The notes under the pieces: model-generated
Database searches by the model: none
Seen by the model: only the letters and a program-made list of their open reading frames with translations
Told to the model about the DNA's origin: nothing
Shown: positions 31,906-64,000 of the stretch, piece after piece
Layout: every line of letters starts with the position of its first letter
Numbering within the stretch: position 1 is the stretch's first letter
Assembly (NCBI GenBank): GCA_964467475.1
Contig: CAYXQO010000005.1
Coordinates: 8,894 to 72,893, forward strand
Reading direction: 5' to 3'
DNA: 64,000 bases
Origin: an uncultured Syntrophomonadaceae bacterium
GTDB taxonomy: Bacteria; Bacillota; Dethiobacteria; DTU022
Program-made: the position numbers and the translations under genes

Positions 31906-31914
31906 GCGTAAAGT

Positions 31915-32780: not shown

Positions 32781-32826
32781 ACTGATTTGTGTCAACAACC
32801 CCGTCCCCCTGGCACTTGTAATTGTA

Positions 32827-32855: not shown

Positions 32856-32865
32856 ACCCCTGCGA

Positions 32866-32941
32866 GGGCGTGTAGCTCAGGTGGGAGAGCGCTTGGCTCG
32901 CATTCAAGAGGTCAGGGGTTCGAGTCCCCTCACGTCCACCA
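32866..32941 (+). tRNA. tRNA-Ala (anticodon CGC)
   Basis: Cloverleaf by eye: acceptor GGGCGUG/CACGUCC with the G3:U70 Ala identity pair, anticodon loop CUCGCAU, T-arm AGGGG-TTCGAGT-CCCCT and an encoded CCA. Confidence 0.88.
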
Positions 32942-46625: not shown

Positions 46626-46636
46626 GGAGCGGCCGG

Positions 46637-47551: not shown

Positions 47552-47913
47552 AAATGGAAAATATGCCGAATGTAAAAGTAGTAATGGCCCGCTGCAGTGG
47601 TAATAATAAAAGTTTTGGCATTCGCCTGGAGGAAGTCACTGCCGGCAACTGGCTGGCCGACTGGGCTTTTGATATCAAGGATCAGCAGGCCCGCAAGGAA
47701 GGCTACCATGAAAACGTGGTCGCCGGCGAGTTCGACTTTGCCACAAACTACCCGGGCTGCCCCCACTGCGGCCGTGATTCCCTGGTGCGCTGTATTTGCG
47801 AAACCGTTTTCTGCTGGGACGGAGACCACCGCAAGGTAAAATGCCCCGCCTGCGGCAGAAAGGGCCGCATCGGCACCGCGATCAGCAGGCTTAAAACAGA
47901 CATTGACCGCTAA
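47536..47913 (+). CDS. Small Cys-rich zinc-ribbon protein (possible TerY-C-like metal-binding partner)
   Basis: 125 aa with CPHCG...CIC...C...CPACG Cys clusters. Overlaps the PP2C stop and precedes the kinase. Confidence 0.55.
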   Translation: MAEVMKMENMPNVKVVMARCSGNNKSFGIRLEEVTAGNWLADWAFDIKDQQARKEGYHENVVAGEFDFATNYPGCPHCGRDSLVRCICETVFCWDGDHRKVKCPACGRKGRIGTAISRLKTDIDR

Positions 47914-47940
47914 ATCTGCGGAGGTGAAGGCGTTAACCCC

Positions 47941-49323: not shown

Positions 49324-49326
49324 CGG

Positions 49327-49405
49327 AATGCCCAGGGGACGGTTCGAGCGTCCCGAAGCACAGCGAAGGCCGAAGGGAAGACGATGGAACCGTCCCCCTG
49401 GCATT
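49327..49405. repeat. Long hairpin (19-bp stem AATGCCCAGGGGACGGTTC / GAACCGTCCCCCTGGCATT, 41-nt loop) right after the kinase stop
   Basis: The arms are reverse complements with one indel. It shares the GGGACGGTTC core with the family-3 REPs. Confidence 0.6.
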
Positions 49406-49455
49406 ACGCTACCCCCCTGACACAGGCATAGACCTACCCAAACGGAGGAACGGCA

Positions 49456-52182
49456 GTGAACAACCAGGTAGCGCGCGTGCTAAAAAATTTAATCGAAGAA
49501 TACGGCAGTACTTTAGGCAGTGATGCTCGGCGTTGCCGGGCGCTTTTGAATGACTACTGCGGTCAATATAAACGGGAAGTCAACGCCCTGCTGCTTGCCC
49601 TCCAGCAGGGTGTGCCCGCAGCCCTGCTTGCTTCCCCGGAAACACCACCTGAGATCATCGAAAACCGCCTTACCGCTAAACTGGCTGAAGAACTGGGCTT
49701 GCGCGTAGAGATTTCCCGCTGGGCAGTGCAAACCTGGGCTTTTGCCCTGGGGATGAGGTCCGTAGAACCGGCAGGTTCGCTCCTTAAAAAAGAGAATCAA
49801 GAGCCCAAACCTAAAAAACCGGCAGGAAAAAAGCAAGGCCCTGCACCACGGCAGGGCTTAAGCGCACCCGCTAAAGAAGAGCTCCCCGGCAAGCCACCAG
49901 AAAAACTTAGCCTGCGCGGCCACCGCGAAGCGGTGCTCGCAGCGGCCTTTTCACCTGATGGCAAGCTGCTTGCGACCGGCAGCAGGGACTATACCGCTAC
50001 CGTATGGGACACCGCAACGGGCGAAGAATTATTGGTCCTGCGCGGCCACAACGGTTACGTGGAAGCGGTGGCCTTTTCCCCAGACGGCAAGTTTCTTGCC
50101 ACCGGCAGCGGCGATTATACCGTCCGCCTCTGGGAAGTGGCTTCCGGTGAAGAGAAAGCCACCATGCGCGGCCATAAAGCCTGGGTTTTCGCAGTGGCCT
50201 TTTTCCCGGACGGCAAGCTGCTTGCCTCGGGCAGCTGGAATAAGACGGTGCGCATCTGGGATACAACCTTTCAAAAGAAGCTGCAGATCCTGCGCGGCCA
50301 CGAGGCGTGGGTGCTTTCAGTAGACGTTTCCCCCGACGGGAAACTGCTTGCCTCCGGCAGTCGTGACGGCACTGTCCGTCTCTATGAAACCCCCGGCGGC
50401 AAAAACCTGGCCGTGCTGCGCGGCCACAAAGATTGGGTTAACGCGGTCGCTTTTTCGCCCTGCGGGAAGCTCCTCGCCTCGGGCGGCAATGATCACAACA
50501 TCAGGCTCTGGGATACCGCGTCAGGGGAAGAACTGGCCGTAATGCAGGGCCACAGCAAGCCCGTGCAAACAATAAGCTTTGCACCCGACGGACGCCTGCT
50601 TGCCTCGGGCAGCCGTGACGAAACCCTGCGCCTCTGGGACCCGGCTTCTGCGGGCGAACTGGCGGTTATCAGCGGGCATGAAGGCTTCGTGGGCGCGGTG
50701 GCCTTCGCCCCCGCAGGCGGTTTTCTCGCCTCAGGCGGGGCAGATGGCAAGATCCGTCTCTGGGATGCCGGAAAATGGCTTGAACGTCTGGCTGAAATTT
50801 ACGAGGCCACTCCCTCCCTGCACCTCCGCCACCAGCATACCGGCCGCCGGGAAACGGCAAAAGAAGACTCTGCTTTAAACGACCAAGCAGCAGATCAGGA
50901 AACTGCCGCACCGGAAGAGCAGGCCGGAAAGAAAAAGAAACAGGAAAGCGGCGGTGAAGCAGCTCCTGCGGAAGGTAAACCGGGCAAAGAAACACTTGAA
51001 ACTGTTGCTGAAGAAAACTCAAGGCCACAGGAGAAAGCTGAGGGTTCTAAAGCGCAGGAAAAGCAAAAGCAGAAAGCCCCGCCCGACGACAGACCCGCCG
51101 GCTCAACCGGTGCTGCGCAAGCGGATCAGCATACCACCCTGCCCCCATCTAAGCGCCCGGCCCCCGGGAAAACACCCTCCACCCGCTACCAGGTGCCTTA
51201 CGAGCTGGCAGTGCTGCAGGGCCACAGCGGCTGGGTCTGGAGCCTCGCCTTTTCCCCGAATGGCAAGTCTCTTGCCTCGGGCAGCCGGGACAAGAGCGTG
51301 TGCCTCTGGGACCTTACCCCTGCAGACGACGCTTCGCTTTCCGGGCAGTTCTGGCCCGGCAGCTTTAACGGTAAGCGCAAAGTCCTGCGCGGCCACCGCA
51401 AGACCGTCTTTTCAGTTTCCTTTTCCCCTGACGGCAGGCTGCTTGCTTCAGGCAGCGGCGATAAGACGATCCGCCTCTGGAACACTTTCTCAGGCAAAGA
51501 GCTCGCCGTCCTAAGGGGCCATGACTATACCGCCGGTGAAGTTCTCACAGTAGCCTTTTCCCCCGGCGGCAGGCTGCTTGCCTCGGGCAGCCTCGATAAA
51601 ACCGTGCGCCTCTGGAACGTGGCAGCGCTAAGAGATAAATCAATCCTACGCCGCCTGTGGCAGGTATTTTCCGGTAAAAAAGCACCTGTCCTGCGCGGCC
51701 ATCGCAACCCGGTGCTCGCGGTTGCCTTTTCCCCGAGCGGCCGCCTCTTAGCTTCCGCCAGCTCTGATGAAACCGTACGCCTGTGGGATGTAGCCACCGG
51801 CGACGAGCTTGCCGTTTTTTCCGGCCATGAAGACTGGGTCAACGCCGTATCTTTTTCCCCCGACGGCAAGTCTCTTGCCTCTGCCGGCTACGATAAAACC
51901 GTGCGCCTGTGGAACCTTTCCACCCGCAAAGAGAGCCTGATCATGCGCGGCCACACCAACGTGGTCCACTCGGTTGCCTTCTCCCCCGGCGGAGACCACC
52001 TCGCCTCCGGCAGCCTGGACCGCACCGTCAGAATCTGGGACGTGGCCACCGGGGAAGAACGGGCGCTACTAAAAGGCCACCAGGACTACGTGGTCCCGGT
52101 AGCCTATTCACCGGATGGCAGGGTGCTCGCCTCGGGCAGCTATGACCGCACCGTGCGCCTCTGGCGCCTGCTCTCCTTTTAA
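49456..52182 (+). CDS. Giant WD40-repeat protein: about 150-aa N-terminal domain, two 7-bladed propellers separated by a K/E/P/A-rich linker
   Basis: At least 14 repeats of the LRGH...V..VAFSPDG..LASGS.D.T.RLWD type. 908 aa. Confidence 0.9.
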   Translation: MNNQVARVLKNLIEEYGSTLGSDARRCRALLNDYCGQYKREVNALLLALQQGVPAALLASPETPPEIIENRLTAKLAEELGLRVEISRWAVQTWAFALGMRSVEPAGSLLKKENQEPKPKKPAGKKQGPAPRQGLSAPAKEELPGKPPEKLSLRGHREAVLAAAFSPDGKLLATGSRDYTATVWDTATGEELLVLRGHNGYVEAVAFSPDGKFLATGSGDYTVRLWEVASGEEKATMRGHKAWVFAVAFFPDGKLLASGSWNKTVRIWDTTFQKKLQILRGHEAWVLSVDVSPDGKLLASGSRDGTVRLYETPGGKNLAVLRGHKDWVNAVAFSPCGKLLASGGNDHNIRLWDTASGEELAVMQGHSKPVQTISFAPDGRLLASGSRDETLRLWDPASAGELAVISGHEGFVGAVAFAPAGGFLASGGADGKIRLWDAGKWLERLAEIYEATPSLHLRHQHTGRRETAKEDSALNDQAADQETAAPEEQAGKKKKQESGGEAAPAEGKPGKETLETVAEENSRPQEKAEGSKAQEKQKQKAPPDDRPAGSTGAAQADQHTTLPPSKRPAPGKTPSTRYQVPYELAVLQGHSGWVWSLAFSPNGKSLASGSRDKSVCLWDLTPADDASLSGQFWPGSFNGKRKVLRGHRKTVFSVSFSPDGRLLASGSGDKTIRLWNTFSGKELAVLRGHDYTAGEVLTVAFSPGGRLLASGSLDKTVRLWNVAALRDKSILRRLWQVFSGKKAPVLRGHRNPVLAVAFSPSGRLLASASSDETVRLWDVATGDELAVFSGHEDWVNAVSFSPDGKSLASAGYDKTVRLWNLSTRKESLIMRGHTNVVHSVAFSPGGDHLASGSLDRTVRIWDVATGEERALLKGHQDYVVPVAYSPDGRVLASGSYDRTVRLWRLLSF

Positions 52183-52694: not shown

Positions 52695-53651
52695 TTGCGC
52701 AATAAACGGAAAAAAAAGAGACTTTCCCCGCTAATTACTTTTCTGGTGCTGCTTCTTTTTGCCGGGGCGATCACCGCCTTTTATTACCCTGAGATGGCCG
52801 GGGAAGTTCGCGAATTTTTCTCTATAGATCTCGCCTCAATGCCTGCCGAACCGGAACAGGAGGCTGAAGAGGGGCCTGCGGAAAAAACAGAAGAAACAGA
52901 AGGTGCCCCTTCGGAGCAGGAACCGGTTGAAGATCCTTTTGCCGAAAAAAAAGAGGATCAGGCGGAGCCTGCGGAAGAAACAGAAGAAGAAACAGCCCCG
53001 GAGGAACCGGCAGAAGAAGAACCGGCAGCAGAAGCTCCCGCTGACCCCGGCGAGGAGAAAGAAGACTATCAGGTGATCTCAGACGGCGATTACTTGCAGG
53101 CCCTGGTGACCAAGGAAACCACCTTAAAAAGCGATTATGTGCCGGCTAATTTAAAACCGCTCCCCGATTACTTAAAAACCTCTGGCGAGATGTATTTACG
53201 GGCGGAAGCCCTGGAGCATTTAAGGAAAATGGCTGATGCGGCCGCCGAAGACGGGGTTACCTTACAGGTGGCTTCCGCCTACCGCAGCTACGATACCCAG
53301 AAATATATTTTCGAAGACTATGCCAGCAGGCACGGCGAAAAAGAAGCGAACCGTTTCAGCGCGAGGCCGGGGCAGTCAGAGCACCAGCTGGGCACCACTG
53401 TCGACTTCGGGGGGACCGCAAAAGATTTCAGCGCTGCATTTGCCGAAACTGACCAGGGCCGCTGGCTGAAAGAAAACGCCTACCGGTACGGCTTTGTGAT
53501 GAGCTACCCCGAAGGCAAGGAGCACATCACCGGCTACATTTATGAGCCCTGGCATTACCGCTATATCGGGGTTGATGAAGCGATGCGCTGGAAAGAGTCC
53601 GGCCTGACTCTAAACGAGTACCTCGAGCAGCAGGAGCAGTTTTTTGAGTAA
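52695..53651 (+). CDS. M15-family D-alanyl-D-alanine carboxypeptidase (VanY-like) with acidic EETEE-repeat N-terminal region
   Basis: TM anchor. SAYRSYDTQ...SEHQLGTTVDF...YEPWHYRY motifs of the M15B/VanY fold. Confidence 0.85.
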   Translation: MRNKRKKKRLSPLITFLVLLLFAGAITAFYYPEMAGEVREFFSIDLASMPAEPEQEAEEGPAEKTEETEGAPSEQEPVEDPFAEKKEDQAEPAEETEEETAPEEPAEEEPAAEAPADPGEEKEDYQVISDGDYLQALVTKETTLKSDYVPANLKPLPDYLKTSGEMYLRAEALEHLRKMADAAAEDGVTLQVASAYRSYDTQKYIFEDYASRHGEKEANRFSARPGQSEHQLGTTVDFGGTAKDFSAAFAETDQGRWLKENAYRYGFVMSYPEGKEHITGYIYEPWHYRYIGVDEAMRWKESGLTLNEYLEQQEQFFE

Positions 53652-53839
53652 AGCCAAAAAAAACAGCAAACAGGTAAGGCGGCGGCCCTGAACCGGGTTG
53701 TCTATTTGAGTAAAGAGTCAGCGGGGTGGATTAAAAGAAGTTTAGCTGTGCCTTTGTTTTCTTGCAGCCCTGTGCTATAATTATTGAAAAAACCCGAAAC
53801 AACCGGTTTTAAGCTTATAAATTTGAGGAGGTGTTGCAG

Positions 53840-54004
53840 GTGGGTCATCCCGACCGCAGGTCGAAGCGTGAACTGAAGCGGAAAAAGAAACGCCAGAAAA
53901 TGCTGCCCCGGCGCAACCTCTACGATCAAACCCTGGATTTAACCCCCTATAACACCGTGGGCCCGATGGCCAAAGGGGAAGAATTCACGATCAAGTATAA
54001 ATAA
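53840..54004 (+). CDS. Possible small basic protein (54 aa), GTG start after GAGGAGG
   Basis: VGHPDRRSKRELKRKKKRQKMLPRRNLYDQTLDLTPYNTVGPMAKGEEFTIKYK. Strong SD 8 nt upstream and TATAAT about 55 nt upstream. Below the ORF-track size cutoff. Confidence 0.3.
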   Translation: MGHPDRRSKRELKRKKKRQKMLPRRNLYDQTLDLTPYNTVGPMAKGEEFTIKYK

Positions 54005-54087
54005 CCGGTAAACGGTACTTTTAAGCTAATTAACCCCTGGTTGAAGCTTTTTAAAACCGGGAAAAAAACCTGATTAAACCCCTTGGT

Positions 54088-55272
54088 TTAACCGGTCCTG
54101 TGAAATGAAGACTGCAAGATTTTTTCCACTTCCGCTGTGTCCACCGGCCGCAGGTTGTTGCCGGCCCGCTCCGGCGTAAACATGCCCTCGATTAAGCCCG
54201 ATACGTTATCTTTGGTAACCCCGTATTTAGAAAGCATTTTATTAATTCCCACCTGCTCAAAAAGGGCAGTTATTTTTTTATGCAGCTCCTCCACCGAGCG
54301 GCAGCCACAGGCCCCGGCCACTTTTTGAAAGCGCCCGTCGTCATCTTTTGCATTGTACTCAAGCAAGGCTGGCAGGGTGAAGGCGCAGGCCAGCCCGTGC
54401 GGGCAGCCTAAGGCGGCGGTAACAGGATAGGAAATCGAGTGAGCCAGGGCGGTGCGGGTAGTGCTGATGCAGATGCCGCCCATTAAGCTCGCTGTAAGCA
54501 TTTCTGAGCGGTATTCTAAGTTGCCCAGGTCTTCGATCAAAAAAGGCAGGATCGATAAGACTATATTTATCGCCTCCCCCGCCAGGGCCACGTTTAAGGG
54601 CCCGGCATTAACATTCCAAACCGACTCCAGGGCGTGGGAAAGCACATCCAGCCCGGTGATTACCGTGGTTTCTTCCGGCAGCGAAAGGGTTAAGCCTGCG
54701 TCCAGCAGGGCGGCCCGGGGAAATAAATCTTTTTTGGCAAGAGAATATTTTTTCTGCGCCTGCAGGTCCCAGATCGTGGCAAAATTAGTCGCCTCGCTGC
54801 CGGTGCCGGCCGTGGTAGGCACCGCCACCAGCGGAAGTAGCGGTAAATCCGGCAGTTTTTGGGCACCCCTGAAATGCTCTTTTAACGAAAAAGCATCTGC
54901 CCCTGAGTTAAGCAGCAGGCTCAGCGCTTTAGCCGTATCGATCGCACTGCCCCCGCCGGCGCCTATTAAAAAGTTAAAGCCCTCACTTTTATAGCGTTTT
55001 TGCCAGGCCTCAAGATCTGCAAGATCGGGGTTTGGTTTTACCTCACCCATCACCTCTACCGGCAGGCCATTTTCTACCAGCGAATTTTTAAGCCTTGCAG
55101 CCTGGCCCCTTTCGACGAAACCGGGTGAGGTGACCAGCAGGCCCTTAGGCTCTTTTTCGCTTTCTACTTTCCTTAGCTCTTCTTTAACCACAGCAGGCAA
55201 TGTTTCAATTTTCCCCGGCCCGGAGATTACTCTAACCGGGTTATAAAAAGACCACTCGTTGCTGTAAAGCAA
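54088..55272 (-). CDS. Iron-containing (group III) alcohol dehydrogenase; predicted phosphonoacetaldehyde reductase (2-hydroxyethylphosphonate-forming)
   Basis: 394 aa Fe-ADH fold (GAGGGSAIDTAKA, His-rich metal site). Last gene of the ppm-ppd operon. Confidence 0.8.
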   Translation of the reverse strand: MLYSNEWSFYNPVRVISGPGKIETLPAVVKEELRKVESEKEPKGLLVTSPGFVERGQAARLKNSLVENGLPVEVMGEVKPNPDLADLEAWQKRYKSEGFNFLIGAGGGSAIDTAKALSLLLNSGADAFSLKEHFRGAQKLPDLPLLPLVAVPTTAGTGSEATNFATIWDLQAQKKYSLAKKDLFPRAALLDAGLTLSLPEETTVITGLDVLSHALESVWNVNAGPLNVALAGEAINIVLSILPFLIEDLGNLEYRSEMLTASLMGGICISTTRTALAHSISYPVTAALGCPHGLACAFTLPALLEYNAKDDDGRFQKVAGACGCRSVEELHKKITALFEQVGINKMLSKYGVTKDNVSGLIEGMFTPERAGNNLRPVDTAEVEKILQSSFHRTG

Positions 55273-55390
55273 AGTTTTAAACCGCTCCTTTGTGCTTATG
55301 CTTGTGTTCTATGCTAAGGTTTACCCGCCTTATCTTTAAAACAAACCGGGCAAACTCTGAGTGTAACCATGCAAACCCGGTACTTCTTTT

Positions 55391-56131
55391 TTATGTTTCA
55401 GAGTGGAGGTAGCGCTTCACCTTTGCCAGGTCTTCTTCATCGTCGATCTCGGTGCAGAATTCATTTCGCAGCGGCACCGGGTGGAGGACAAGCTCGTTTA
55501 ATATATTGTTCAGGGCGTCTTCAGCGTAAACCTTCAGGCGCCCTTCTTTTTCGAAGTTTTTCATTTGATCGACCCAGGCGGCGAAGCTTTTTCTTGTCAG
55601 CTTGTAAAAGGGGATTAAAAAGACGCAGGCCTCACCGAAAACCTCCACCCCGATTTTTTTGACCCTGCCGCCTTTGATTTCTGCCTTGAAATCTTTTTCC
55701 GGAAGGCTTACCTGCGGGTTGGTTAAAACGGCATCGCTGAAAGGGGTTTTTAGCAGTTTTTCTGAGACCGCCCGGTCATAAACCAAATCGCCGTGTAAAA
55801 GGATCAGCTGATCACCTGCCCCCAAAGCGCCTAAAATGTTATCAGCTGCCAGCAACAAAGAATAGATGTAGTTGGTTTCCTCGTAGCGGGGGTTGTGGAC
55901 AAAGCTGAAATTAACTTTTTCGAAATGCCTTTTCAGGTAGGCTTCAAGCATCTCAGAGAAAGGCCCGGTGGTGATGAGGATCTTGTCGATCCCTGCTTCC
56001 TGCAGGCTTTTTACCTGCCGGCTTATAATGGTTTCAGTACCGGTGATTTCAACTAAGCATTTCGGCTGCGTTTTAGTCAGCTCGCCCATGCGGGAACCGG
56101 TGCCTGAATTTAAGATTACCGCCATCTTCAT
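55391..56131 (-). CDS. LicC/MobA-like NTP-transferase (predicted phosphonate or phosphocholine cytidylyltransferase)
   Basis: MKMAVILNSGTGSRMG...KCLVEI nucleotidyltransferase N-terminus. 246 aa. Confidence 0.78.
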   Translation of the reverse strand: MKMAVILNSGTGSRMGELTKTQPKCLVEITGTETIISRQVKSLQEAGIDKILITTGPFSEMLEAYLKRHFEKVNFSFVHNPRYEETNYIYSLLLAADNILGALGAGDQLILLHGDLVYDRAVSEKLLKTPFSDAVLTNPQVSLPEKDFKAEIKGGRVKKIGVEVFGEACVFLIPFYKLTRKSFAAWVDQMKNFEKEGRLKVYAEDALNNILNELVLHPVPLRNEFCTEIDDEEDLAKVKRYLHSET

Positions 56132-57379
56132 TTAAGCTGATCCTTTCTGTAAAAACTGCATAAATTGCCGTTTGTTTTCCTGCGGGGTGCTCTTGGGACG
56201 TCCCAGCTCTTTTCTTGCCCCCGGGCGCACCCGGATCTCTAAAAAGACCGGCCCCTGGTTTGCTTTGACCTTCTCTAAGGCCGCGTCCAGCTGTTCTTTT
56301 GTTTCTGCCCGGAAGCTTTTGTTGTAGCCGCAGGCTTTAGCAATTTTCACTAAATCGATATTGCCTGCCACCGTGGGCTGCCCGCCTACCGACTCATGGG
56401 CTCCGTTGTTAAAGACAAGGTGTTTGTAGTTGGCTGCCCCGCTGGTGCCGCTGGTAGCAAGCGCTCCCATGTGCATAAGCACCGCCCCGTCGCCGTCAAA
56501 GCAGTAGATCTCCCGCCCGGGCAGGTTTAAGGCGACGCTTAAGGCGATTTGCGAGGCATGCCCCATGGAACCGACATTTAAAAAATCCTTCTCGTGGCTT
56601 TCTTCGCTTCTTTCCCGGTACTCGTAAATCTCCCGGGAAAGTTTACCGGTGGTAGAAATAACCGCCGCCCCCGGTTGCAGGCTTTCAAGCGCTATAATTG
56701 CCGCTTCTTCCCTGGTCAGGGGGCACTGTTCAAAAGAGCCTCTAAAACCTGCCTGCCCGGCCGGTTCCCCCGGGTCTTCACCTGCAACAGCGCCTCCTTT
56801 GAAGCCGGCTAAACTTGTTCTTGATGCATTTTCATTTTCTGCCTCGTAGGGGCCAAAAATATCCTTGCCTGCTACCAGGGCGTAGGGTTCGTTTAATGCC
56901 CGGATGTGCTCGGTCGCCTTGACCAGCTCCTCGTAAGCGTCTTCTTCCGTGCCCGGCAAAATAGAGTATTGCAGCCCCAGCGCTTGCAAAAGCGGTAAGG
57001 TTACCAGGCCCTGCTTTAAATGCTGCGGCTCATCCTCCAGGCCAGGCTCGCCCCGCCAGCCGATCAGTAAAAGCAGCGGCATGTTGTAAACCATGGGGTC
57101 GGTTAAGGATACCAGCGGGTTAATTGCGTTGCCCAGGCCGGAATTTTGCATGTAGACCAGCCCCGGCCTGCCGGTGGCCAGGTAATGTCCCGCCGCCAGT
57201 GCCACCGCTCCACCTTCGTTGGCCGCGGTGATATGACGCCCGGCGCCGCTTTGATCGGCAATGCAGGCGGTTATATTTTTGAGGAGAGAATCGGGCACCC
57301 CGGTGAAAAAATCAATCCCCTGCTTCAACATTGAATCATAAAAAAACTGGCAATCAACCATCAAAAAAACCCTCCCCAA
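56132..57379 (-). CDS. ppd: Phosphonopyruvate decarboxylase (TPP-dependent, fused alpha/beta)
   Basis: N-terminus ...GIDFFTGVPDSLLK... and a TPP-binding GDG...N motif characteristic of phosphono/sulfopyruvate decarboxylases. Confidence 0.88.
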   Translation of the reverse strand: MGRVFLMVDCQFFYDSMLKQGIDFFTGVPDSLLKNITACIADQSGAGRHITAANEGGAVALAAGHYLATGRPGLVYMQNSGLGNAINPLVSLTDPMVYNMPLLLLIGWRGEPGLEDEPQHLKQGLVTLPLLQALGLQYSILPGTEEDAYEELVKATEHIRALNEPYALVAGKDIFGPYEAENENASRTSLAGFKGGAVAGEDPGEPAGQAGFRGSFEQCPLTREEAAIIALESLQPGAAVISTTGKLSREIYEYRERSEESHEKDFLNVGSMGHASQIALSVALNLPGREIYCFDGDGAVLMHMGALATSGTSGAANYKHLVFNNGAHESVGGQPTVAGNIDLVKIAKACGYNKSFRAETKEQLDAALEKVKANQGPVFLEIRVRPGARKELGRPKSTPQENKRQFMQFLQKGSA

Positions 57380-57406
57380 AAGAAATATCGAGCCCCCCTC
57401 CAGAGC

Positions 57407-58708
57407 TTACTTGCCGCCGGGGATCAGGTTGAGGATATCCTTGATCGGCATGCAGCACTCTTCGCTTTCATAAGCCCGCTCGTTTTCTAAAATCTGTTCC
57501 GCCGTTTTGATCATGGCCGGGTAGGCGCTGCGCAGCAAGTGGTTGGCATAGATCACGATATCCACGCCTGCTTCCATCAGCTCGCTTTCTGTGACCTGGC
57601 AGTAGGTAGTGGGCACCGCCACCAGGGTCGCCTGCTTGTTGAATTTGCGGAAAGCGGTGCAAAAATCGAATATTTCCTGCGGGTCCTTTTCCTTGCTGTG
57701 GATCATGATCCCGTCTGCGCCTGCTTCCAGGTAAGCTTTAGCCCGCTCGAGCGCATCATCAAGCCCCGCCTTTAGAATCAGGCTTTCGATCCGGGCGATG
57801 ATCATAAAATCTTCTGTCACCTGGGCTTTTTTGCCGCGGGAGATCTTGGCGGAGAAGTGCTCGATGCTGTCCTGCTCCTGGGCTACCTCGGTGCCGAAAA
57901 GGGAGTTTTTCTTCAAGCCCACCTTGTCCTCGATGATTACCGCCGAAACCCCGAACCTTTCTAAGCTCTTGACCAGGTAGGCGAAATGTTCCATGTGCCC
58001 GCCCGTATCACCGTCCATGATGATCGGCTTGGTGGTCACTTCCAAAATATCGTTGATCGTGTTCAGGCGCGAGCTGTTGTCCACCAGCTCGATGTCGGGC
58101 TTGCCCTTCACCGTGGAGTCGCACAAACTGCTCACCCACATCCCGTCGAACTGCTTGACCACATCACCCTGGCTGATACGCAGTTTTTCCACGATCAACC
58201 CGGTCAGGCCGTTGTGGGCTTCCATGAAGCGCAAAAGCGGCTTAACTTCCAGCAGACGCCGCAGGCGGTTGATCCTGATCTGCGGGGTGGTGCCGATTTC
58301 CTGCAGGGTTTGATCGAGCATACTCACAGAGACACCCTTGGTGTACTCCACTTCCACCAGCTCGCCGCCCCACTCCTTCAGGGTCTCGATCACTTTCTCG
58401 CGGATTTCTTTTTGAATCCCCGTTTTCCAGTCGTCCCCGTGCACCACGTAATCGGGCTTTAATTTTACCAGGTTGGGCACGTAATCTAACGTATCCTGCG
58501 GGATCACCCTGCTGACCCCTTTTAAGTTCTCCACGATTTGCTTGCGGTGTTCGAACTCGATCACCGGGTAGCGCTTGTAGGTGGCGATCACTTCATCGGT
58601 TAAAATGCCCACCGTCACTTCGCCAAGTTTCCTTGCCTCGTTGATCACGTTTATATGCCCGTGGTGGATAATATCGGCGCTCATGGCCAGGTATACTTGT
58701 TTCATCAC
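57407..58708 (-). CDS. ppm: Bifunctional cytidylyltransferase-like (HxGH) domain fused to phosphoenolpyruvate phosphomutase
   Basis: N-terminal SADIIHHGH class-I nucleotidyltransferase motif. C-terminal PEP mutase core MEAHNGL...DGDTGG...IEDKVGLKKNS...AGADGIMIHS. Confidence 0.88.
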   Translation of the reverse strand: MMKQVYLAMSADIIHHGHINVINEARKLGEVTVGILTDEVIATYKRYPVIEFEHRKQIVENLKGVSRVIPQDTLDYVPNLVKLKPDYVVHGDDWKTGIQKEIREKVIETLKEWGGELVEVEYTKGVSVSMLDQTLQEIGTTPQIRINRLRRLLEVKPLLRFMEAHNGLTGLIVEKLRISQGDVVKQFDGMWVSSLCDSTVKGKPDIELVDNSSRLNTINDILEVTTKPIIMDGDTGGHMEHFAYLVKSLERFGVSAVIIEDKVGLKKNSLFGTEVAQEQDSIEHFSAKISRGKKAQVTEDFMIIARIESLILKAGLDDALERAKAYLEAGADGIMIHSKEKDPQEIFDFCTAFRKFNKQATLVAVPTTYCQVTESELMEAGVDIVIYANHLLRSAYPAMIKTAEQILENERAYESEECCMPIKDILNLIPGGK

Positions 58709-58806
58709 CTAAAAATTACTCCCTTTCCTTTATGAGAATGTAACCTGCTTATTCTTGATATATTCTCGAAAGAAAGTAAAAAACCCTTGTTTTAAAAGCA
58801 AAGGTT

Positions 58807-59481
58807 TTAAAGCCTGGCGATTAGCTCATCGGGGCTGACATGCCTGATTGCCCCGTCGTCGAAGATGAAAAACCAGTCTTTCCGGGGCACTTCCCAGTCG
58901 CCGTAGCGGAAGCTCAAATAACGCCGGTAGTCTTTCGGGGCGGGGATCTGGTGATTAAAGTAAATGGTTTCCTCGAAATAGTGCCTGGGCACCCAGACCA
59001 CGTAGACCTTGTAACTTAAAGACCAGGGCCAGTGGTTGACGATGACCTTGTTCTTGCGGACAAAAATTTCTTGGATTACCCGCCGGGGCAGGCCGTAGAG
59101 GTAGTAAGAAAGGTGTTTGCGGGAAAAGGGGTAGGGCATGCAGTAGATCTGCGGGCACCAGGCATGCTTGTTTTCACTACGGAAAAGGCTGATATCGATA
59201 TCGAGCGAAGAATCTTTAAAAGTAGGGCTCAGCTTGTACTTAAAGTTCAGCCCCCGGTAATTTTTTACCGCCACCCGGTAACCCCGTTCTTTGATCAAAG
59301 GCAGCACTTCATTCAACAAGGGCTCGCTACCGGCCCACATGCTTAAATCGATATCGTGATCGTCTTTCATGATCTGACCCTCTCTGGCCAGGCCCAGCAG
59401 GGTCCCGCTGTCGGCCCAGAAGCGGATTCCCTTCTCTGAAAGAAGCCCGCTGATCCACTGCAGTTCGCGGTTAAGGTGCAT
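58807..59481 (-). CDS. LicD-family phospho(no)transferase paralog 1
   Basis: ADSGTLLGLAREGQIMKDDHDIDL, the LicD nucleotidyltransferase-fold DxD motif. Confidence 0.8.
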   Translation of the reverse strand: MHLNRELQWISGLLSEKGIRFWADSGTLLGLAREGQIMKDDHDIDLSMWAGSEPLLNEVLPLIKERGYRVAVKNYRGLNFKYKLSPTFKDSSLDIDISLFRSENKHAWCPQIYCMPYPFSRKHLSYYLYGLPRRVIQEIFVRKNKVIVNHWPWSLSYKVYVVWVPRHYFEETIYFNHQIPAPKDYRRYLSFRYGDWEVPRKDWFFIFDDGAIRHVSPDELIARL

Positions 59482-59498
59482 CTAAGATACCTCTTTGC

Positions 59499-60260
59499 TC
59501 AGGTTCTGTTTTGTATCGCGCCGTCATCGCGCGTAAAGTCCCAGTCTAGCTTTTGTTCGTGCCAGTCGTCTCCGTACTTTAAGCGCAAGTATTCCTCTGG
59601 CTTAGCCGGCACCGGCAGCACCAGCCCCTCTGCCCTGATTTCTTCCAGCTCCAGGAAATATTCTTCCGGCACGGCCATTTGCACGTAGCCCTTCTTAAGA
59701 TAAAGAAACCGGCCACATAAGTTTCCCGCAAGCTGCCAAAGGGCCCCGGGCACCATCTGTGCCGTTTTTAAAAAGAGCTTCCCGGCAGCCCCGCTTTTAT
59801 TTTTCCGGCCCATTTTTTCTTTTAGCGTGCCCGCCCGGGCATGGGCGCAAAATAGCGCTACCTTTAAAAGCAAAGCTTTTAGTTTTCCGCCGCTTGCACA
59901 GGGCACCTTCTTCCGGGCTAAACCTTCTTCCCGCCGGTAAAAGGCGATATTTACCATCCGGTGCTTCCGGTCAAGGGCTGAAATGCTCAGCTGGTGGGGC
60001 TTGAATGTTTCCACAAAAGCCCCCGCCGGTTTAAGCTCACGCTTAATCTTATTTTTCATCCGGCGATAGTCTTCTTCCCACATGCCCAGATCAATGTCGT
60101 GATCGCACTTGAGCAAGCGGCCTTCTCTTACCAGCCCCAGCAGGGTGCCCTGGTCGAGCCAGTACTGAAGGCCCAGGTCTTCAAACACCCTGATCGTTTC
60201 GATAAACAAAGGGTTACCGGCTAACCCGTATCTTTCTTGCCTCACTTGATTATTTCCCAT
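59499..60260 (-). CDS. LicD-family phospho(no)transferase paralog 2
   Basis: LDQGTLLGLVREGRLLKCDHDIDLGMW. Confidence 0.8.
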   Translation of the reverse strand: MGNNQVRQERYGLAGNPLFIETIRVFEDLGLQYWLDQGTLLGLVREGRLLKCDHDIDLGMWEEDYRRMKNKIKRELKPAGAFVETFKPHQLSISALDRKHRMVNIAFYRREEGLARKKVPCASGGKLKALLLKVALFCAHARAGTLKEKMGRKNKSGAAGKLFLKTAQMVPGALWQLAGNLCGRFLYLKKGYVQMAVPEEYFLELEEIRAEGLVLPVPAKPEEYLRLKYGDDWHEQKLDWDFTRDDGAIQNRT

Positions 60261-61098
60261 ATTTTCGTTGCAGCCCTTTAACCTGTGCGCGCACTTCCCG
60301 GAGCGAGGCCCTGTGATTTTTTCCGGTGTAAGCGCTGAGATCGACCATTTTTTCTGGAGGCTTTCTGTTTAAGGCCCCGTCTTTGCGCCAGAAATTCCAT
60401 TTACGTTTGGGAAACTGCCAGGTGCGGTAACGAAAGGCGAGGTACTCTTCCCATTTCTCGGGCACGTAAGTCTCAAAGCGGGAACAATAGATCAGGTGGT
60501 CGAAATAATCGCTGTGCACCCACCAGGTTCCCAGGCTGCGGCGCAGGCGCCAGGGGAAATCTGCTACGTCGGTAGCCACTAAATGGTCCCGCAGGCGTTT
60601 GCGCGCGATCACGAAGTAGCGGTAAAAACGCCTGGTTACCCGCCTTGGAAAGGGCGGCCCGATGCCTTCACCTGCCGGGCACCAGGCCCACTCGCCGCTT
60701 CTCCGGTAGAGCATTAAATGCACCGGCAGTTCGCCTTCTTTAGTGAAGCGGTACTGGTAGATCAGGCCCCGGTAAAGCCAGATGGTCACAAGATAGCCGG
60801 CCTGCCAAAACACTGGTAAAAGTTCTCGCAACCGGCCTTCATGTTCTGCCCACATCTGCAAATCGATGTCTTTTTCATGATCTAATAGCTTGCCCTCGCG
60901 CATTAGCCCCAAAAGCACTCCGCTGTCCATGCAGTAGGGCAGCCCTGTTTCGTTAAGGATTCGCACAAAGGGAAGGTGGTCTTTTCTTACCTCAAAGCTT
61001 GCTTCGATCGCTTCTTCGCCTGCTTCTTCCGCTACCCCTTCATCTTCCGCCACCGGTTCTTCTTCCTCTACTGCTTGCTTGCGGGCCTCAAAATCCAT
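60250..61098 (-). CDS. LicD-family phospho(no)transferase paralog 3 (acidic N-terminal extension)
   Basis: MDSGVLLGLMREGKLLDHEKDIDLQMW. Overlaps paralog 2 by 11 nt. Confidence 0.8.
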   Translation of the reverse strand: MDFEARKQAVEEEEPVAEDEGVAEEAGEEAIEASFEVRKDHLPFVRILNETGLPYCMDSGVLLGLMREGKLLDHEKDIDLQMWAEHEGRLRELLPVFWQAGYLVTIWLYRGLIYQYRFTKEGELPVHLMLYRRSGEWAWCPAGEGIGPPFPRRVTRRFYRYFVIARKRLRDHLVATDVADFPWRLRRSLGTWWVHSDYFDHLIYCSRFETYVPEKWEEYLAFRYRTWQFPKRKWNFWRKDGALNRKPPEKMVDLSAYTGKNHRASLREVRAQVKGLQRKYGK

Positions 61099-61307
61099 CT
61101 AGTTTTTCTTTAACCCCCTGCTCTGGTTCTTTTCCTTCATTATAGCACTTTTTATGATGAAAGCATCAATAAAATATCAGGGTTTGCTAAAGGGCGAGGG
61201 CCGCTTTTTAAAGCAGGTTCACCCTGCCTGTTTTAAAAGGCCCTCCCCAAAGGGAGGGCCGGCCTACCTTAAAAATTATGGCCACTTTAAAACTTCGCCC
61301 CGCACCT

Positions 61308-63509
61308 TTAAAGCTCTCCCACGATCTGTTCCAGATCTTCTTCCCAGTCGGTGCGCACTTCCAAAGCCTCTTCTGCCAGCTTGACGGCCAGCTCTTCGTC
61401 GTTTAAGAGCTGTGCGGCAATGCTTACCGCCATCCGGTGGGAATCAAACAGGCGGGGCTCGATGCCGGCGGCTTCCTTGCACAAAGAAAGAGCTTCTTCA
61501 AAGTAGCTCTCATCGCCCCGCAGGCTGCCCAGGTATATCTTCGCCTGGGCCAGGTTCCAGTGGGCCTGCACGTTGGTCGGGCTGATTTCGTGGGCTTTTT
61601 TAAAAGTATCCTTTGCAATTTCAGCCTTTTCTTCAGCCTGATCTCTTGTTTCCTCGTCGCCGGTTGCTTCCATCAGGCTGCGGGCATACGTATTATAGAT
61701 CTGCCCCAGCGTGTAGTAATGCCTGAAATTTAGGGGCGTTTCAATGGTGCTTTTTTCCACCTCTGCTGCCATGAACTCTAAATCTTCGCTGTATATTTTA
61801 AATTCCTCTGCCTCTTCTGCCTGGTTAAGCCGCGACATGGCGTCTTCTGCTAAATGTCGCCTGATGTGCCTGCGCCCGAGCGGTGAGGTATAGATCGCCT
61901 CTTCGTAAAGCTCCTCTTTCGGCACTCCCGGCTGGTCTCTCAGGGCCAGGCTGGTATTAAGGCTGCCCTGGTGGGGCTGGTAACAGAAATAGTTAAAACA
62001 AACCCCGAGCAAAATGGCAAGCCCCAGGGCGATGGCTATTGATGCAGGGCTGGCGGCGCTTTTCTTGCCCGCAGAAGCAGCTTTTTTAGCGCCCTTTCCT
62101 TTTTTTTCAGCTGTATCTTCTTCCTTTGCCGAACCCGGCTTGATCGTTTCACCGCTGATCGCTGCCCCGAAGGCAAGCACCACGAACATGAGCATATAGC
62201 TTGAGATCATGTCGAAGACGGTCAAATTCTGGATGAAATGGGCCACTACCAGGGCGGTAAAGACCCCCGGCGCCCAGAAGTCGATCCGTTTGTCGATTAA
62301 ATAGGCCTTCCAGAGGACCAAAAGGGCTGCTGCGAACATGCCGAAAAATAAAAACGTCCCTAAAAAACCGGTGGCTACCAGGTAGTCGATCACCACGTTG
62401 TGGGCCCGGTCGTGCCAGGGTTCTTCCCGGTAGCCGTAATCCCCGCCGAGCATCACCCGCGGGTCGTAGTTTTCATACAAGGCAATTTCGAAATTTTCCT
62501 GGCCCCAGCCGAGCACCGGGCGCTCCATTACGCCGTCCCAGACCGCTTCCCAGTTCCTCACCCGGCCGCGGATGCCCGGTAAGTCCATGATCTGCTCGCG
62601 CGCTACCGATCCTTCCTGGAAGGTGCTGATCCCAATATAAATGGCACCCACCAAAGAAAGGGCCAGTAACCCCCTGCCGGCATAGTTGACAATCCGGTTT
62701 TTATAGTAAAAGGAAAAATAAATCAAAGCGAATAGAAAGATGCCGATAACAAAAGAGGCTTTCATGGCGTTGCCCGATTCGTTGAAGAAAAGCCCCATCA
62801 CGATCAGGACAAAAGCTGCCCCTGCAACATAGCGCCAGGGTTTTTCACTTTTAAAGACCAGGTAGAGGGCGAAAAAGGCGTTGATCAGCATGTACGATCC
62901 CCAGAAGGAGCGGTTGCCTAAAGTGGAGCCGCCTCTTGCCAGGTCGGTAAGTTCAATCGCGGCGATCCCGAAAAGGTCGTAAAGTTGCAAAACAAAGTTA
63001 AGCCCAACAATGTCTGCTATACCCCACAGGCCTACCACGCAGGCAACACCCACCGCGATACTTAAAAAACTCTTCCAGGCGGTTTCGCTTTTTAGAAAGC
63101 TAAAAAGCACCACGAAAAAAGCGAACAGGTGCAGGTGGACTAACACCCCGGTCATCCGTTCGTGCTTGGACCAGAAGCTGTGGAAGGGGTCCGCTCCCAG
63201 GGCTGCGCTTAAAGCAAGCACCGCCATAAACAGCCCCACCACGATTAAAACCGGGCTGAGTTTCGGGCGGTACTCCTTGTTGTAGTAGGCCAGGTAGGCC
63301 CAGATGGCCGTGGTGAACTGCACGCAGCCCATGAACCAGATCGTGCGGTAGCTGATAAAGGGGAAGAAAGCACCCAGCCTGACCATTAATGGCACCAGCA
63401 GGGTGAAAAATAGTCCCGCCCAGATCAACCACCGCAGCGTTTTCGTTAGGGAGTCTTCCTCCGGTAAAACTGCACCTTTAGTCTGTTTCTGCTTTTTCTT
63501 TTTGCCCAC
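61308..63509 (-). CDS. O-antigen ligase/Wzy-like polytopic membrane protein with C-terminal TPR repeats
   Basis: 733 aa with at least 12 TM helices and a soluble TPR-like C-terminus. A paralog of 34555-37380. First gene of the phosphonate operon. Confidence 0.72.
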   Translation of the reverse strand: MGKKKKQKQTKGAVLPEEDSLTKTLRWLIWAGLFFTLLVPLMVRLGAFFPFISYRTIWFMGCVQFTTAIWAYLAYYNKEYRPKLSPVLIVVGLFMAVLALSAALGADPFHSFWSKHERMTGVLVHLHLFAFFVVLFSFLKSETAWKSFLSIAVGVACVVGLWGIADIVGLNFVLQLYDLFGIAAIELTDLARGGSTLGNRSFWGSYMLINAFFALYLVFKSEKPWRYVAGAAFVLIVMGLFFNESGNAMKASFVIGIFLFALIYFSFYYKNRIVNYAGRGLLALSLVGAIYIGISTFQEGSVAREQIMDLPGIRGRVRNWEAVWDGVMERPVLGWGQENFEIALYENYDPRVMLGGDYGYREEPWHDRAHNVVIDYLVATGFLGTFLFFGMFAAALLVLWKAYLIDKRIDFWAPGVFTALVVAHFIQNLTVFDMISSYMLMFVVLAFGAAISGETIKPGSAKEEDTAEKKGKGAKKAASAGKKSAASPASIAIALGLAILLGVCFNYFCYQPHQGSLNTSLALRDQPGVPKEELYEEAIYTSPLGRRHIRRHLAEDAMSRLNQAEEAEEFKIYSEDLEFMAAEVEKSTIETPLNFRHYYTLGQIYNTYARSLMEATGDEETRDQAEEKAEIAKDTFKKAHEISPTNVQAHWNLAQAKIYLGSLRGDESYFEEALSLCKEAAGIEPRLFDSHRMAVSIAAQLLNDEELAVKLAEEALEVRTDWEEDLEQIVGEL

Positions 63510-63643
63510 TTAAAGCTGCGCCCCCCTTTAAAAACTTGCATTTGCCAAGGATTATACCATAAAGCGCACCTCAGGAAAAATAAAAAAAACCGGCGTTTAT
63601 AATCTTTCCTGCCGCCGGTTTCAAAAATTTTTAAACCTTCTTT

Positions 63644-64000
63644 TTAAACCTTCTTCTGGTAGATAAAAGCATCGCTGAAGCCCGCATCCCTTGCCTCGCT
63701 CAAGCGCTGCCTGGCATTTTCGATATATCTAAAGGCTCCCACCTGCACGCTGTAGAGGGAGTTGCCGGAAGGGACAGGGTCCCTTCCGGCCTCCTTTTCA
63801 CTTTTTTCACTGCCTCCCGGCGGCAGCCCCAAAGCCTTATAAATCCCTTCTGCCACCCCGCCGGCAAGGGTTTCTGTAAAAGCCTCATTTTCCCACAGCC
63901 CCGCTTCCCTGGCGTTGTCGATGAAAAGCGACTCGATCAAAACCGCCGGCTGAGGGTTGTGCCGCAAAACGTAAAAGGCAGCCTGTTTCCTGCCCCGGTC
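63644..64000 (-). CDS. N-acetylmuramoyl-L-alanine amidase (Amidase_3) with C-terminal SPOR domain; N-terminus lies beyond the window end
   Basis: The frame stays open to position 64000 (...DRGRKQAAFYVLRHNPQPAVLIESLFIDN is the amidase_3 C-terminal motif). SPOR-like YSVQVGAFRYIENARQRLSEARDAGFSDAFI. Confidence 0.7.
   Translation of the reverse strand, partial: DRGRKQAAFYVLRHNPQPAVLIESLFIDNAREAGLWENEAFTETLAGGVAEGIYKALGLPPGGSEKSEKEAGRDPVPSGNSLYSVQVGAFRYIENARQRLSEARDAGFSDAFIYQKKV

Follow-up and report, generated by a model that had tools for sequence, protein, structure and literature searches.

The window analysed here is a stretch of 64,000 nucleotides from contig CAYXQO010000005.1 of an uncultured Syntrophomonadaceae bacterium, which carries at 54088–63509 eight open reading frames (ORFs) in the same direction on the minus strand. 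An earlier note, made from the sequence alone, had read them as an operon for the synthesis and attachment of a phosphonate. All eight genes were present at these positions in the ORF list, and independent gene calls for the source contig (ENA ERZ27266011:k141_556650; 64.2 kb, nearly all of it covered by the window) concurred. The domain assignments of the earlier note also held when the proteins were searched with the profile models of Pfam and NCBIfam, with a qualification for two of the LicD proteins given below. In the direction of reading, the genes code for a Wzy_C membrane protein with a TPR domain, three LicD-like paralogs (a, b and c), a cytidylyltransferase fused to a phosphoenolpyruvate (PEP) phosphomutase (cyt::ppm), a phosphonopyruvate decarboxylase (ppd), a stand-alone LicC/PntC-like nucleotidyltransferase and an iron-type alcohol dehydrogenase (ADH). 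All features of the cluster described below lie on the minus strand.

The seven genes from licD-a to the dehydrogenase gene (54088–61098) probably form a phosphonyl-tailoring module of the branch that leads to 2-hydroxyethylphosphonate (HEP). The biochemical reading of this core is well supported overall, and we rate the synthesis of HEP itself higher than the reading as a whole. The gene order is kept in at least 15 related loci (loci are designated here by L numbers), and the proteins encoded in this order in soda-lake relatives are 44–91% identical to those of the window. The closest genomes are soda-lake "Syntrophomonadaceae" metagenome-assembled genomes, whose fusion proteins are 84–91% identical, and a metagenome scan recovered a contig with 99–100% identity to the window (L087), which represents the same organism from Kulunda-type soda-lake sediment.

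Predicted synthesis and activation of 2-hydroxyethylphosphonate

The fusion gene (57407..58708) codes for a bifunctional, Fom1-like protein of 433 amino acids, in which a cytidylyltransferase domain (about residues 1–140) precedes a PEP phosphomutase (Ppm) domain (about residues 145–433). The Ppm domain scored 412.6 bits with the NCBIfam model TIGR02320, compared to an equivalog cutoff of 319.55, and contains the catalytic loop EDKVGLKKNS at residues 260–269, corresponding to window positions 57902–57931. Because the EDKxxxxxNS motif, whose loss had been set beforehand as the observation that would speak for a methylisocitrate-lyase-type enzyme, is present and TIGR02320 scored far above the methylisocitrate lyase model prpB (96 bits), we rejected the latter identity, and the assignment as a PEP mutase stands. 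The next gene follows the stop codon of the fusion gene after 27–45 nt and codes for the phosphonopyruvate decarboxylase Ppd (56132..57379, 415 amino acids with a TTG start; the gene caller placed the start at 57361, resulting in 409 amino acids). It reached 484.8 bits with TIGR03297 (cutoff 312.5) and matched both TPP_enzyme_N (PF02776) and TPP_enzyme_C (PF02775). With both enzymes above their equivalog cutoffs, the formation of phosphonoacetaldehyde by Ppm and Ppd, as proposed in the earlier note, is supported. Across the genome loci L001–L080, the fusion protein was found with 63–73% identity in very distant lineages, namely Bacillota, Bacteroidota, Ignavibacteria, Spirochaetota, Gammaproteobacteria, Paceibacteria, Saccharibacteria, and DPANN and Methanosarcinales archaea; because this conservation is unusually high for such distances, it suggests that the ppm-ppd core is often transferred horizontally.

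The dehydrogenase gene (54088..55272) codes for a protein of 394 amino acids with Fe-ADH and ADH_Fe_C domains, which we regard as a putative PhpC-type metal-dependent phosphonoacetaldehyde reductase (EC 1.1.1.309). Its best model was TIGR03405 for phosphonate-associated alcohol dehydrogenases with 321.9 bits, which leads the next-best NCBIfam model (198 bits) by more than 120 bits. As mapped by motif spacing, D209, H213, H278 and H292 match the metal ligands of PhpC, and K175, T274, Y282 and R369 match its predicted HEP-binding set of Lys, Thr, Tyr and Arg, as listed in PMC13576164; the Tyr at position His+4 is specific for PhpC and is replaced by Phe in sulfoacetaldehyde reductases (PMC13576164). 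The four residues of the HEP-binding set are invariant in all 44 dehydrogenases encoded beside a fusion gene. Sharing the cluster with ppm and ppd places the enzyme in a biosynthetic context, and no phosphonate catabolic genes (phnX, phnY/phnA) were found in the 64-kb window.

To separate the HEP branch from that of 2-aminoethylphosphonate (AEP), we surveyed the best 80 loci with the same cytidylyltransferase::Ppm fusion and scored dehydrogenase genes within 6 kb. This type of dehydrogenase was present in 45 loci and a class-V aminotransferase of the AEP transaminase (AEPT) type in 19, while no locus contained both; the other 16 had neither and mostly represent truncated contigs, which leaves 64 informative loci. 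The 64-kb window contains no AEPT homolog or other class-V aminotransferase gene. In one relative only (L004), a class-III aminotransferase gene lies divergently beside licD-a (5526–6806, minus strand); it was not counted as a member of the system, since there is no homolog at that position in L005–L007.

The fused cytidylyltransferase domain matched PF01467 with 55.9 bits (cutoff 21), carries the motif HHGH at residues 15–18 and aligned with the cytidylyltransferase domain of Fom1 (5X3D) at an E value of 1.5e-50 and 57% identity. Fom1 uses this domain to produce HEP activated with cytidine monophosphate (CMP-HEP; PMC6697681). The domain of the window carries the Fom1 residue at seven of the eight columns that discriminate between the branches. 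At the top columns, the proteins from dehydrogenase-type loci and Fom1 have L36, A42, K45 and Y76, whereas those from AEPT-type loci have H, R, W and Q, and the former state was found in Bacillota, Bacteroidota, Ignavibacteria, Spirochaetota, bacteria of the candidate phyla radiation, DPANN archaea and the Fom1 protein of Streptomyces. The prediction of a Fom1-type HEP cytidylyltransferase is supported by this agreement, as is the activation with CMP that the earlier note had put forward.

The gene for the stand-alone nucleotidyltransferase (55391..56131, 246 amino acids) abuts ppd with zero gap. The protein shows the NTP_transf_3/NTP_transferase fold with a GxGxR signature (PF12804, 46.5 bits; PF00483, 45.8 bits), and a profile of 12 orthologs found LicC (1JYK, E 4e-20) and the PntC of Treponema denticola (Tde-PntC; 6PD1, E 8e-20) as best matches in the PDB. 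Orthologs with at least 38% identity occurred only in dehydrogenase-type loci, where all 13 carry the motifs LLHGD...ALNN, in contrast to about 20 nucleotidyltransferases from AEPT loci with LLLESD, identical to Tde-PntC around Glu104, and AIFD. According to the alignment, His113, Asn208 and Ala203 of the window protein occupy the amine-binding and aromatic-box positions and are invariant in 13 of 13 orthologs. The corresponding amine contacts are acidic in Tde-PntC (E104, E196) and LicC (Asp residues including D192 at the second position), and the nucleotidyltransferases of AEPT loci keep the amine-contacting Glu and Asp. Because the acidic residues are replaced, we consider the protein a relative of PntC and LicC that belongs to neither specificity group; a hydroxyl head group would fit the neutral His and Asn that have taken over the positions of the amine-binding acids. 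A phosphocholine pathway, which had been named as a possible outcome against the phosphonate reading, was ruled out by the lack of licA and licB and by the replaced choline-binding residues of LicC. As in the licC/licD pairing of the choline pathway, the LicC-like transferase occurs together with LicD in 11 of the 14 loci that possess it.

The best NCBIfam match of the stand-alone enzyme was IPCT/DIPPS. In two distant HEP loci (L012, 13180–14826; L112, 9043–9978), its gene is directly followed by one or two genes for membrane proteins of the CDP-alcohol phosphotransferase family and then by licD. Because this order echoes the pairing in IPCT/DIPPS, it suggests that CMP-HEP can also feed CDP-OH_P_transf enzymes.

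HEP is well supported as the product instead of AEP, as the earlier note had proposed from the dehydrogenase gene, because four independent lines agree: the PhpC-type residues of the dehydrogenase, the mutual exclusion of dehydrogenase and AEPT in the informative loci, the fused cytidylyltransferase and the stand-alone nucleotidyltransferase. The absence of an AEPT gene from the window agrees with this assignment.

LicD paralogs and the Wzy_C/TPR gene

The three licD-like genes lie directly upstream of the fusion gene and code for proteins that share the motifs GxLLGxxREG and DxD. Paralog a (60250..61098, 282 amino acids; GVLLGLMREG, EKDIDL, DxD at residue 77) is a soluble protein whose N-terminal extension is acidic and whose C-terminal one is basic, and its orthologs at the equivalent position in relatives are 53–71% identical. 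Paralog b (59499..60260, 253 amino acids, or 248 from the alternative start of the gene caller at 60245; DxD at residue 55) is the nearest of the three to canonical LicD, has orthologs of 44–50% identity and matched FKRP (6KAJ) with its N-terminal motif at an E value of 1.2e-6. Paralog c (58807..59481) comprises 224 amino acids. The assignment to the LicD family in the earlier note needs one amendment: PF04991 was passed by paralog b alone (58.8 bits), and paralogs a (18.6 bits) and c (20.8 bits) stayed below threshold, yet both are genuine paralogs of b, with 29–30% identity over the full length and BLASTP E values of 2e-12 (a) and 4e-18 (c). All 26 members of the homolog alignment matched PF04991 at an E value of 0.01 or better, and G26, L28, L29, G30, R33, D43 and D45 of paralog c are invariant among them. 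No transmembrane segments were predicted in any of the three proteins, and their only NCBIfam match was Mf1.

The AlphaFold2 (AF2) model of paralog c, with a predicted local distance difference test (pLDDT) score of 90.8, showed the catalytic domain of the CDP-ribitol transferase FKRP as its best fold match (E 1.4e-8, probability 1.0), and the protein is predicted to be a CMP-phosphonate:acceptor phosphonyl transferase. We also scanned metagenomic loci of at least 6 kb with a narrow alignment of this short LicD subfamily, measuring identity to paralog c; the profile found 493 representative clusters at E ≤ 1e-30 and 7,313 at E ≤ 1e-10. Phosphonate genes (Ppm, Ppd, nucleotidyltransferase or ADH) were present in all 13 loci with at least 40% identity, in 6 of 16 with 30–40% and in 6 of 17 below 30%, and an AEPT gene was found in none of the scanned loci. 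Because only about 5% of bacterial genomes contain ppm (PMC8942020), this linkage represents a strong enrichment that is specific for the HEP branch. The three LicD paralogs are likely to be the transferases, and this part of the earlier proposal agrees with the FKRP fold and the 13 linked loci; the glycan or teichoic-acid-like polymer that it named as acceptor can be suggested only from the gene context in relatives.

Upstream of licD-a lies the gene for the Wzy_C/TPR protein (61308..63509, 733 amino acids), which matched PF04932 with 49.6 bits (cutoff 31.7) and contains about 12 transmembrane segments and an acidic TPR tail. Its AF2 model (pLDDT 91.4) shows a WaaL fold and, after an extra transmembrane helix, an all-helical repeat domain at residues 532–731, and the best PDB match was WaaL (7TPG; E 4.7e-5, TM-score 0.58 on the target). 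The TPR match of the protein itself is weak in Pfam (17.3 bits), whereas its homologs give strong ones. R316, D367 and H370 (in HDRAHN) are invariant in 46 homologs. The sequence cannot separate a ligase from a polymerase or an O-oligosaccharyltransferase. We found 112 homologs, located in other glycan loci beside Stealth, GT4, ABC-2, Wzx, Bac_transf or SLH genes, and no phosphonate genes were present in these loci. The gene does not adjoin the module in any other species, and the only other copy in this position is that of L087 from the same organism. Its inclusion in the phosphonate system by the earlier note was not borne out by these data; it codes for a glycan-handling enzyme of some glycan pathway, and a link to the phosphonate is suggested by adjacency in a single genome only. 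A second Wzy_C-family membrane protein of 941 amino acids is encoded at 34555–37380 (plus strand), directly after a right-handed beta-helix/NosD-like protein (33038–34465), so that the contig carries two O-antigen-ligase-like genes, neither of them beside glycosyltransferase genes.

The Wzy_C/TPR gene is probably also a separate transcription unit. Because a consensus scan called about as many sites in the sequence as in shuffled controls (22 terminator-like sites vs. 18.1) or fewer (4 promoter-like sites vs. 6.6), we inspected and folded the intergenic gaps by hand. In the 210-bp gap after the Wzy_C/TPR gene, a terminator-like hairpin at 61235–61260 (GGCCCTCCC-TTTG-GGGAGGGCC plus TTTT; −23.9 kcal/mol, z = −2.1) consists of a perfect G+C-rich stem of 9 bp followed by a T-run, and a promoter-like element precedes licD-a at 61139–61169, with an extended −10 sequence TGcTATAAT at 61139–61147 and TTGATG at 61164–61169. 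The spacer of 19 nt in the latter is long, and the consensus scan, which allowed 16–18 nt, did not call it. Because of this hairpin and the extended −10-like element, the region 54088–63509 appears to comprise at least two transcription units, and the single operon assumed in the earlier note was not confirmed; the comparative evidence that the Wzy_C/TPR gene adjoins the module in one organism only matters more here than the hairpin and the −10-like element. Another extended −10-like element, TGgTATAAT, was read from the sequence upstream of the Wzy_C/TPR gene at 63551–63559, coming after the terminator-like hairpin of the upstream amidase/SPOR gene at 63585–63640 (−15.9 kcal/mol, z = −3.3). 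The cluster ends with a terminator-like hairpin and T-run at 54065–54099, which overlaps the stop codon of the dehydrogenase gene (−14.8 kcal/mol, z = −2.8), and weaker hairpins were found in two further gaps (58708–58807 and 55272–55391). An Rfam scan of 53000–64000 with E values up to 1 gave no match, and therefore no riboswitch or known leader explains the gaps.

Acceptor, alternative readings and surroundings of the cluster

In the pathway that we propose, PEP would be converted to phosphonopyruvate by the Ppm domain, decarboxylated to phosphonoacetaldehyde by Ppd and reduced to HEP by the PhpC-type dehydrogenase. HEP would then react with cytidine triphosphate to CMP-HEP, catalysed by the fused Fom1-like domain, the stand-alone LicC-like transferase or both, and the three soluble LicD proteins would use CMP-HEP as donor and place the HEP-phosphonyl group on hydroxyls of a lipid-linked precursor of an envelope glycopolymer at the cytoplasmic face; export and anchoring of the modified polymer would be performed by machinery encoded elsewhere. 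The sequence evidence for the steps up to HEP is strong, the prediction of CMP-HEP is drawn from covarying residues and from close homology to a single characterised enzyme, and the transfer step and the nature of the acceptor are suggested by the family chemistry and the gene context in relatives.

This context points to a cell-envelope polymer. The module is adjoined by genes for a TagGH-like ABC-2 exporter in L004–L007, L012, L014, L015 and L112, with a divergent one flanking it in L004–L007. L004 and L006 also contain genes for glycosyltransferases of the families GT1 and GT2 and for Bac_transf and Glf-like proteins, and L004 additionally an LCP gene. In L012 and L112, the layout is TagG, TagH, ADH, cyt::ppm, ppd, nucleotidyltransferase, one or two CDP-alcohol phosphotransferases, LicD and Bac_transf. 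In L112, genes for a TagO-like GT4 and an LCP protein come next. In L012, the LCP genes lie upstream, and TarI/TarJ-like genes are present together with a canonical LicD. Genetically, such an arrangement marks a teichoic-acid-like polymer that is exported by an ABC transporter and anchored to peptidoglycan.

Several points weigh against the reading as a HEP-tailoring system for an envelope polymer, which is throughout a deduction from sequence. The window contains no genes for glycosyltransferases, exporters, LCP proteins or priming transferases. The dehydrogenase stays below the equivalog cutoff of TIGR03405 (423.7 bits), and its residues were assigned to those of PhpC by motif spacing, with no direct alignment to a characterised enzyme. 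Because most of the AEPT loci are clostridial, phylogeny inflates the residue contrast between the two types of loci, and the covariation is partly confounded by the prevalence of Clostridium among the AEPT-type loci. Two of the three LicD proteins fall short of the PF04991 cutoff of 22.6 bits, and about 36% of the more distant loci of the LicD subfamily carry phosphonate genes, a substantial share being unlinked. We found no report in the searchable literature of a LicD-family enzyme using a CMP-phosphonate, nor of an experimental demonstration of any transferase placing a phosphonate on its acceptor. Finally, the need for two cytidylyltransferases in one cluster is unexplained.

Two alternatives concern the product. 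AEP is the commonest surface phosphonate, accounting for 56% of ppm neighbourhoods (PMC8942020), the AEPT loci share the fusion gene at about 65% identity, and only one contig of the genome is visible; an aminotransferase encoded elsewhere might accordingly produce AEP, with the dehydrogenase in a side or salvage role. We nevertheless consider this very improbable, because dehydrogenase and AEPT genes never occur together in the 64 informative loci, the dehydrogenase carries the PhpC-specific Tyr and the Lys/Arg clamp, both cytidylyltransferases show the residues of dehydrogenase-type and not of AEPT-type loci, and there is no AEPT within 64 kb. A small-molecule phosphonate made via CMP-HEP as in fosfomycin synthesis, with the LicD-like proteins being unrelated enzymes of the nucleotidyltransferase fold such as resistance enzymes, is barely credible. 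It would agree with the presence of equivalents of Fom1, Fom2 and FomC, with a weak similarity of the LicD model to the antibiotic nucleotidyltransferases LnuA and ANT(2'') and with PF10706 matches in 9 of 26 LicD homologs. However, FKRP matches the model about 1000-fold better than the ANT enzymes, the relatives carry genes for cell-envelope polymers in this context, and neither a Fom3-type B12 radical-SAM methyltransferase nor an epoxidase, a HEPD/MpnS-type dioxygenase, a non-ribosomal peptide synthetase or an ATP-grasp enzyme is encoded in or beside the cluster. A fosfomycin-type cluster was likewise rejected from the absence of the Fom3, Fom4 and FomD families among all eight assigned ORFs.

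The other two alternatives concern the acceptor. HEP may be chained through its free hydroxyl on a primed lipid carrier, yielding a teichoic-acid-like poly(hydroxyethylphosphonate) instead of a single decoration; this we regard as improbable, as is the consequence that the stand-alone His/Asn enzyme would be the first HEP-specific PntC. It would suit this idea that HEP keeps a free hydroxyl after transfer, that three transferases are more than a simple cap needs, and that FKTN and FKRP, LicD-family enzymes of which FKRP is the best fold match of LicD, add ribitol phosphate in tandem. The number of CMP-dependent transferases is also three in L012 (one LicD and two CDP-OH_P_transf proteins) and one plus one in L112, the modules of both loci are placed between the TagGH-like exporter and the Bac_transf/TagO-like primers with LCP ligases, and no other glycosyltransferase was found among the ORFs scanned there, several large ORFs lying outside the scan. 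Against it, the closer relatives L004, L006 and L008 possess GT1, GT2 and Glf-like genes, which fit a decorated ordinary glycan, polymerase-like processivity is unreadable from sequence, and the only isolated bacterial HEP conjugates, as far as the work cited in PMC8942020 is reported there, are exopolysaccharide decorations. With TagGH-like export and anchoring by LCP proteins, such a polymer would represent a teichoic-acid analogue with a phosphodiesterase-resistant C–P backbone. A non-wall acceptor, either a glycolipid or lipoteichoic-acid anchor (resulting in a phosphonolipid) or a glycan carried by a surface glycoprotein such as that of an S-layer, appears unlikely to us; in the glycoprotein variant, the Wzy_C/TPR protein would serve as a PglL/WsaB-type O-oligosaccharyltransferase. 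The Wzy_C family does include protein O-oligosaccharyltransferases, the TPR domain of the Wzy_C/TPR protein is probably extracytoplasmic and would suit the binding of a protein or polymer, one homolog is encoded beside SLH-domain proteins, and Mf1, the single NCBIfam match of the LicD proteins, is a LicD-family enzyme that transfers phosphocholine onto a glucolipid. Phosphonylated surface glycoproteins have moreover been proposed for marine bacteria (PMC8931226). Yet the conserved neighbours in relatives are TagGH-like exporters and LCP ligases, the hallmarks of peptidoglycan-attached polymers, and the Wzy_C/TPR gene, which is followed by a terminator-like hairpin of its own, does not accompany the module in other species. 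Should the acceptor be a polymer linked to peptidoglycan, as the relatives suggest, it would represent the first phosphonate-bearing teichoic-acid-like polymer in Bacillota, with a bearing on phosphorus cycling and phosphatase resistance in alkaline anoxic sediments.

The remainder of the window is ordinary chromosome with secA, prfB, ftsEX, uvrABC, rpoN, glycolysis genes, RNase R and smpB/tmRNA, and the proteins encoded on the flanks of the cluster are of the amidase/SPOR, VanY, WD40 and kinase types. A strongly basic ORF of 54 amino acids (VGHPDRRSKRELKRKKKRQK...) at 53839–54003 (plus strand), located between the gene for the VanY carboxypeptidase and the end of the dehydrogenase gene, was also called in the metagenome annotation and received no family assignment. 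The block at 45891–52182 (plus strand) has a G+C content of 0.58–0.61, compared to about 0.52 elsewhere, and encodes a VWA/TerY-like protein, a PP2C phosphatase, a small TerY_C-like protein, a Ser/Thr kinase and a protein of 908 amino acids with 14 WD40 repeats, resembling a "TerY-phosphorylation triad" plus a beta-propeller protein. The kinase matched the defence-system kinase models mad6 and PD-T4-6, and a stronger match was obtained for the WD40 protein with the PADLOC model HEAT-ARM_XIII (E 8.4e-49). At 30967–32941 (plus strand), smpB is followed by tmRNA (31437–31790, tag AKPNVALAA), an IS200-type Y1 transposase gene (32013–32780) and tRNA-Ala, with the G+C content falling to 0.447, which looks like an insertion beside ssrA; ARAGORN called a second, permuted and dubious tmRNA overlapping the transposase gene at 32013–32780. 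Another contig from this sample (k141_143096) also encodes proteins of window positions 1–27000 such as UvrB, as seen by comparison with L083, and both the source contig and a JGI soda-lake contig end about 3 kb upstream of the Wzy_C/TPR gene, a hint that strains coexist or that this region varies or is repeated.

Comparison with known systems

The scheme in which Ppm and Ppd are combined with nucleotidyl activation and LicD-like transfer was presented by Rice et al. 2019 (PMC6697681), who also described fusions of PF01467 and Ppm with a second transferase nearby and still called the steps after formation of the C–P bond enigmatic. AEP clusters have been studied in the Gram-positive anaerobes Atopobium and Olsenella (PMC6697681, PMC8942020). 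According to Li and Horsman 2022, PhpC-type (HEP) neighbourhoods make up 8.5% of ppm loci, and products have been isolated from two families only (PMC8942020). The statement of the earlier note that such systems are essentially uncharacterised in Gram-positive anaerobes thus holds for Bacillota and for the transferase step, but not for the logic of the pathway or for clusters with two cytidylyltransferases, which have already been published (PMC6697681, PMC8942020). Surface phosphonates are widespread, and this cluster, together with its relatives, provides a small set of testable enzymes that extends the published model to a new branch and lineage and overturns nothing in it.

The Pnt clusters of Treponema denticola, Atopobium rimae and Olsenella uli (PMC6697681) resemble the module in combining Ppm and Ppd with a fused cytidylyltransferase, a second LicC-like one, and LicD-like phosphotransferases that are proposed to hand the CMP-activated phosphonate to a surface glycan. 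They differ in possessing an AEP transaminase and an AEP-preferring PntC, whereas the window encodes a PhpC-type reductase, a LicC-like enzyme with His/Asn in place of the amine-binding Glu/Asp and three tandem LicD proteins of a short, divergent subfamily in a soda-lake Bacillota host. From the fosfomycin pathway of Streptomyces, equivalents of Fom1 (cytidylyltransferase::Ppm), Fom2 (Ppd) and FomC (Fe-ADH) with matching roles are present, while the Fom3 methyltransferase, the FomD hydrolase and the Fom4 epoxidase are absent; CMP-HEP is a transient intermediate there and presumably the transfer donor here. Two actinomycetes have yielded isolated HEP-containing glycans (work cited in PMC8942020 and PMC13576164). 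As far as secondary accounts of Yu et al. 2014 describe them, the phosphonoglycans of Glycomyces sp. and Stackebrandtia nassauensis also contain HEP that is formed by Ppm, Ppd and a PhpC-type reductase and is bound as an ester to an extracellular polysaccharide, but these are aerobic actinomycetes with an isolated product, whereas HEP is predicted here from genes alone.

The lic pathway (LicA-LicB-LicC-LicD) of Streptococcus pneumoniae and Haemophilus likewise uses a LicC-type cytidylyltransferase and LicD transferases to decorate teichoic acid or lipo-oligosaccharide, with several LicD paralogs in pneumococcus. Unlike in this pathway, genes for a choline kinase or transporter are absent from the window, the positions that hold the aromatic-box Trp and the acidic residues in LicC are occupied by A203, H113 and N208, and the head group would be made de novo and carry a C–P bond. 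FKTN and FKRP (FKRP structures 6KAJ–6KAN) share the catalytic fold, the DxD motif, the occurrence as tandem paralogs and the type of reaction, the transfer of a CDP/CMP-activated alcohol phosphate or phosphonate to a hydroxyl group, but they belong to the eukaryotic Golgi, carry an additional stem domain, use CDP-ribitol as donor and are 18–21% identical. What is new here is the HEP-type signature of the stand-alone cytidylyltransferase, in which both residues that contact the substrate are cleanly unlike those of the AEP and choline enzymes, the short HEP-linked LicD subfamily in triplicate, and the linkage to genes for teichoic-type export and anchoring in a lineage of Bacillota that is uncultured and alkaliphilic.

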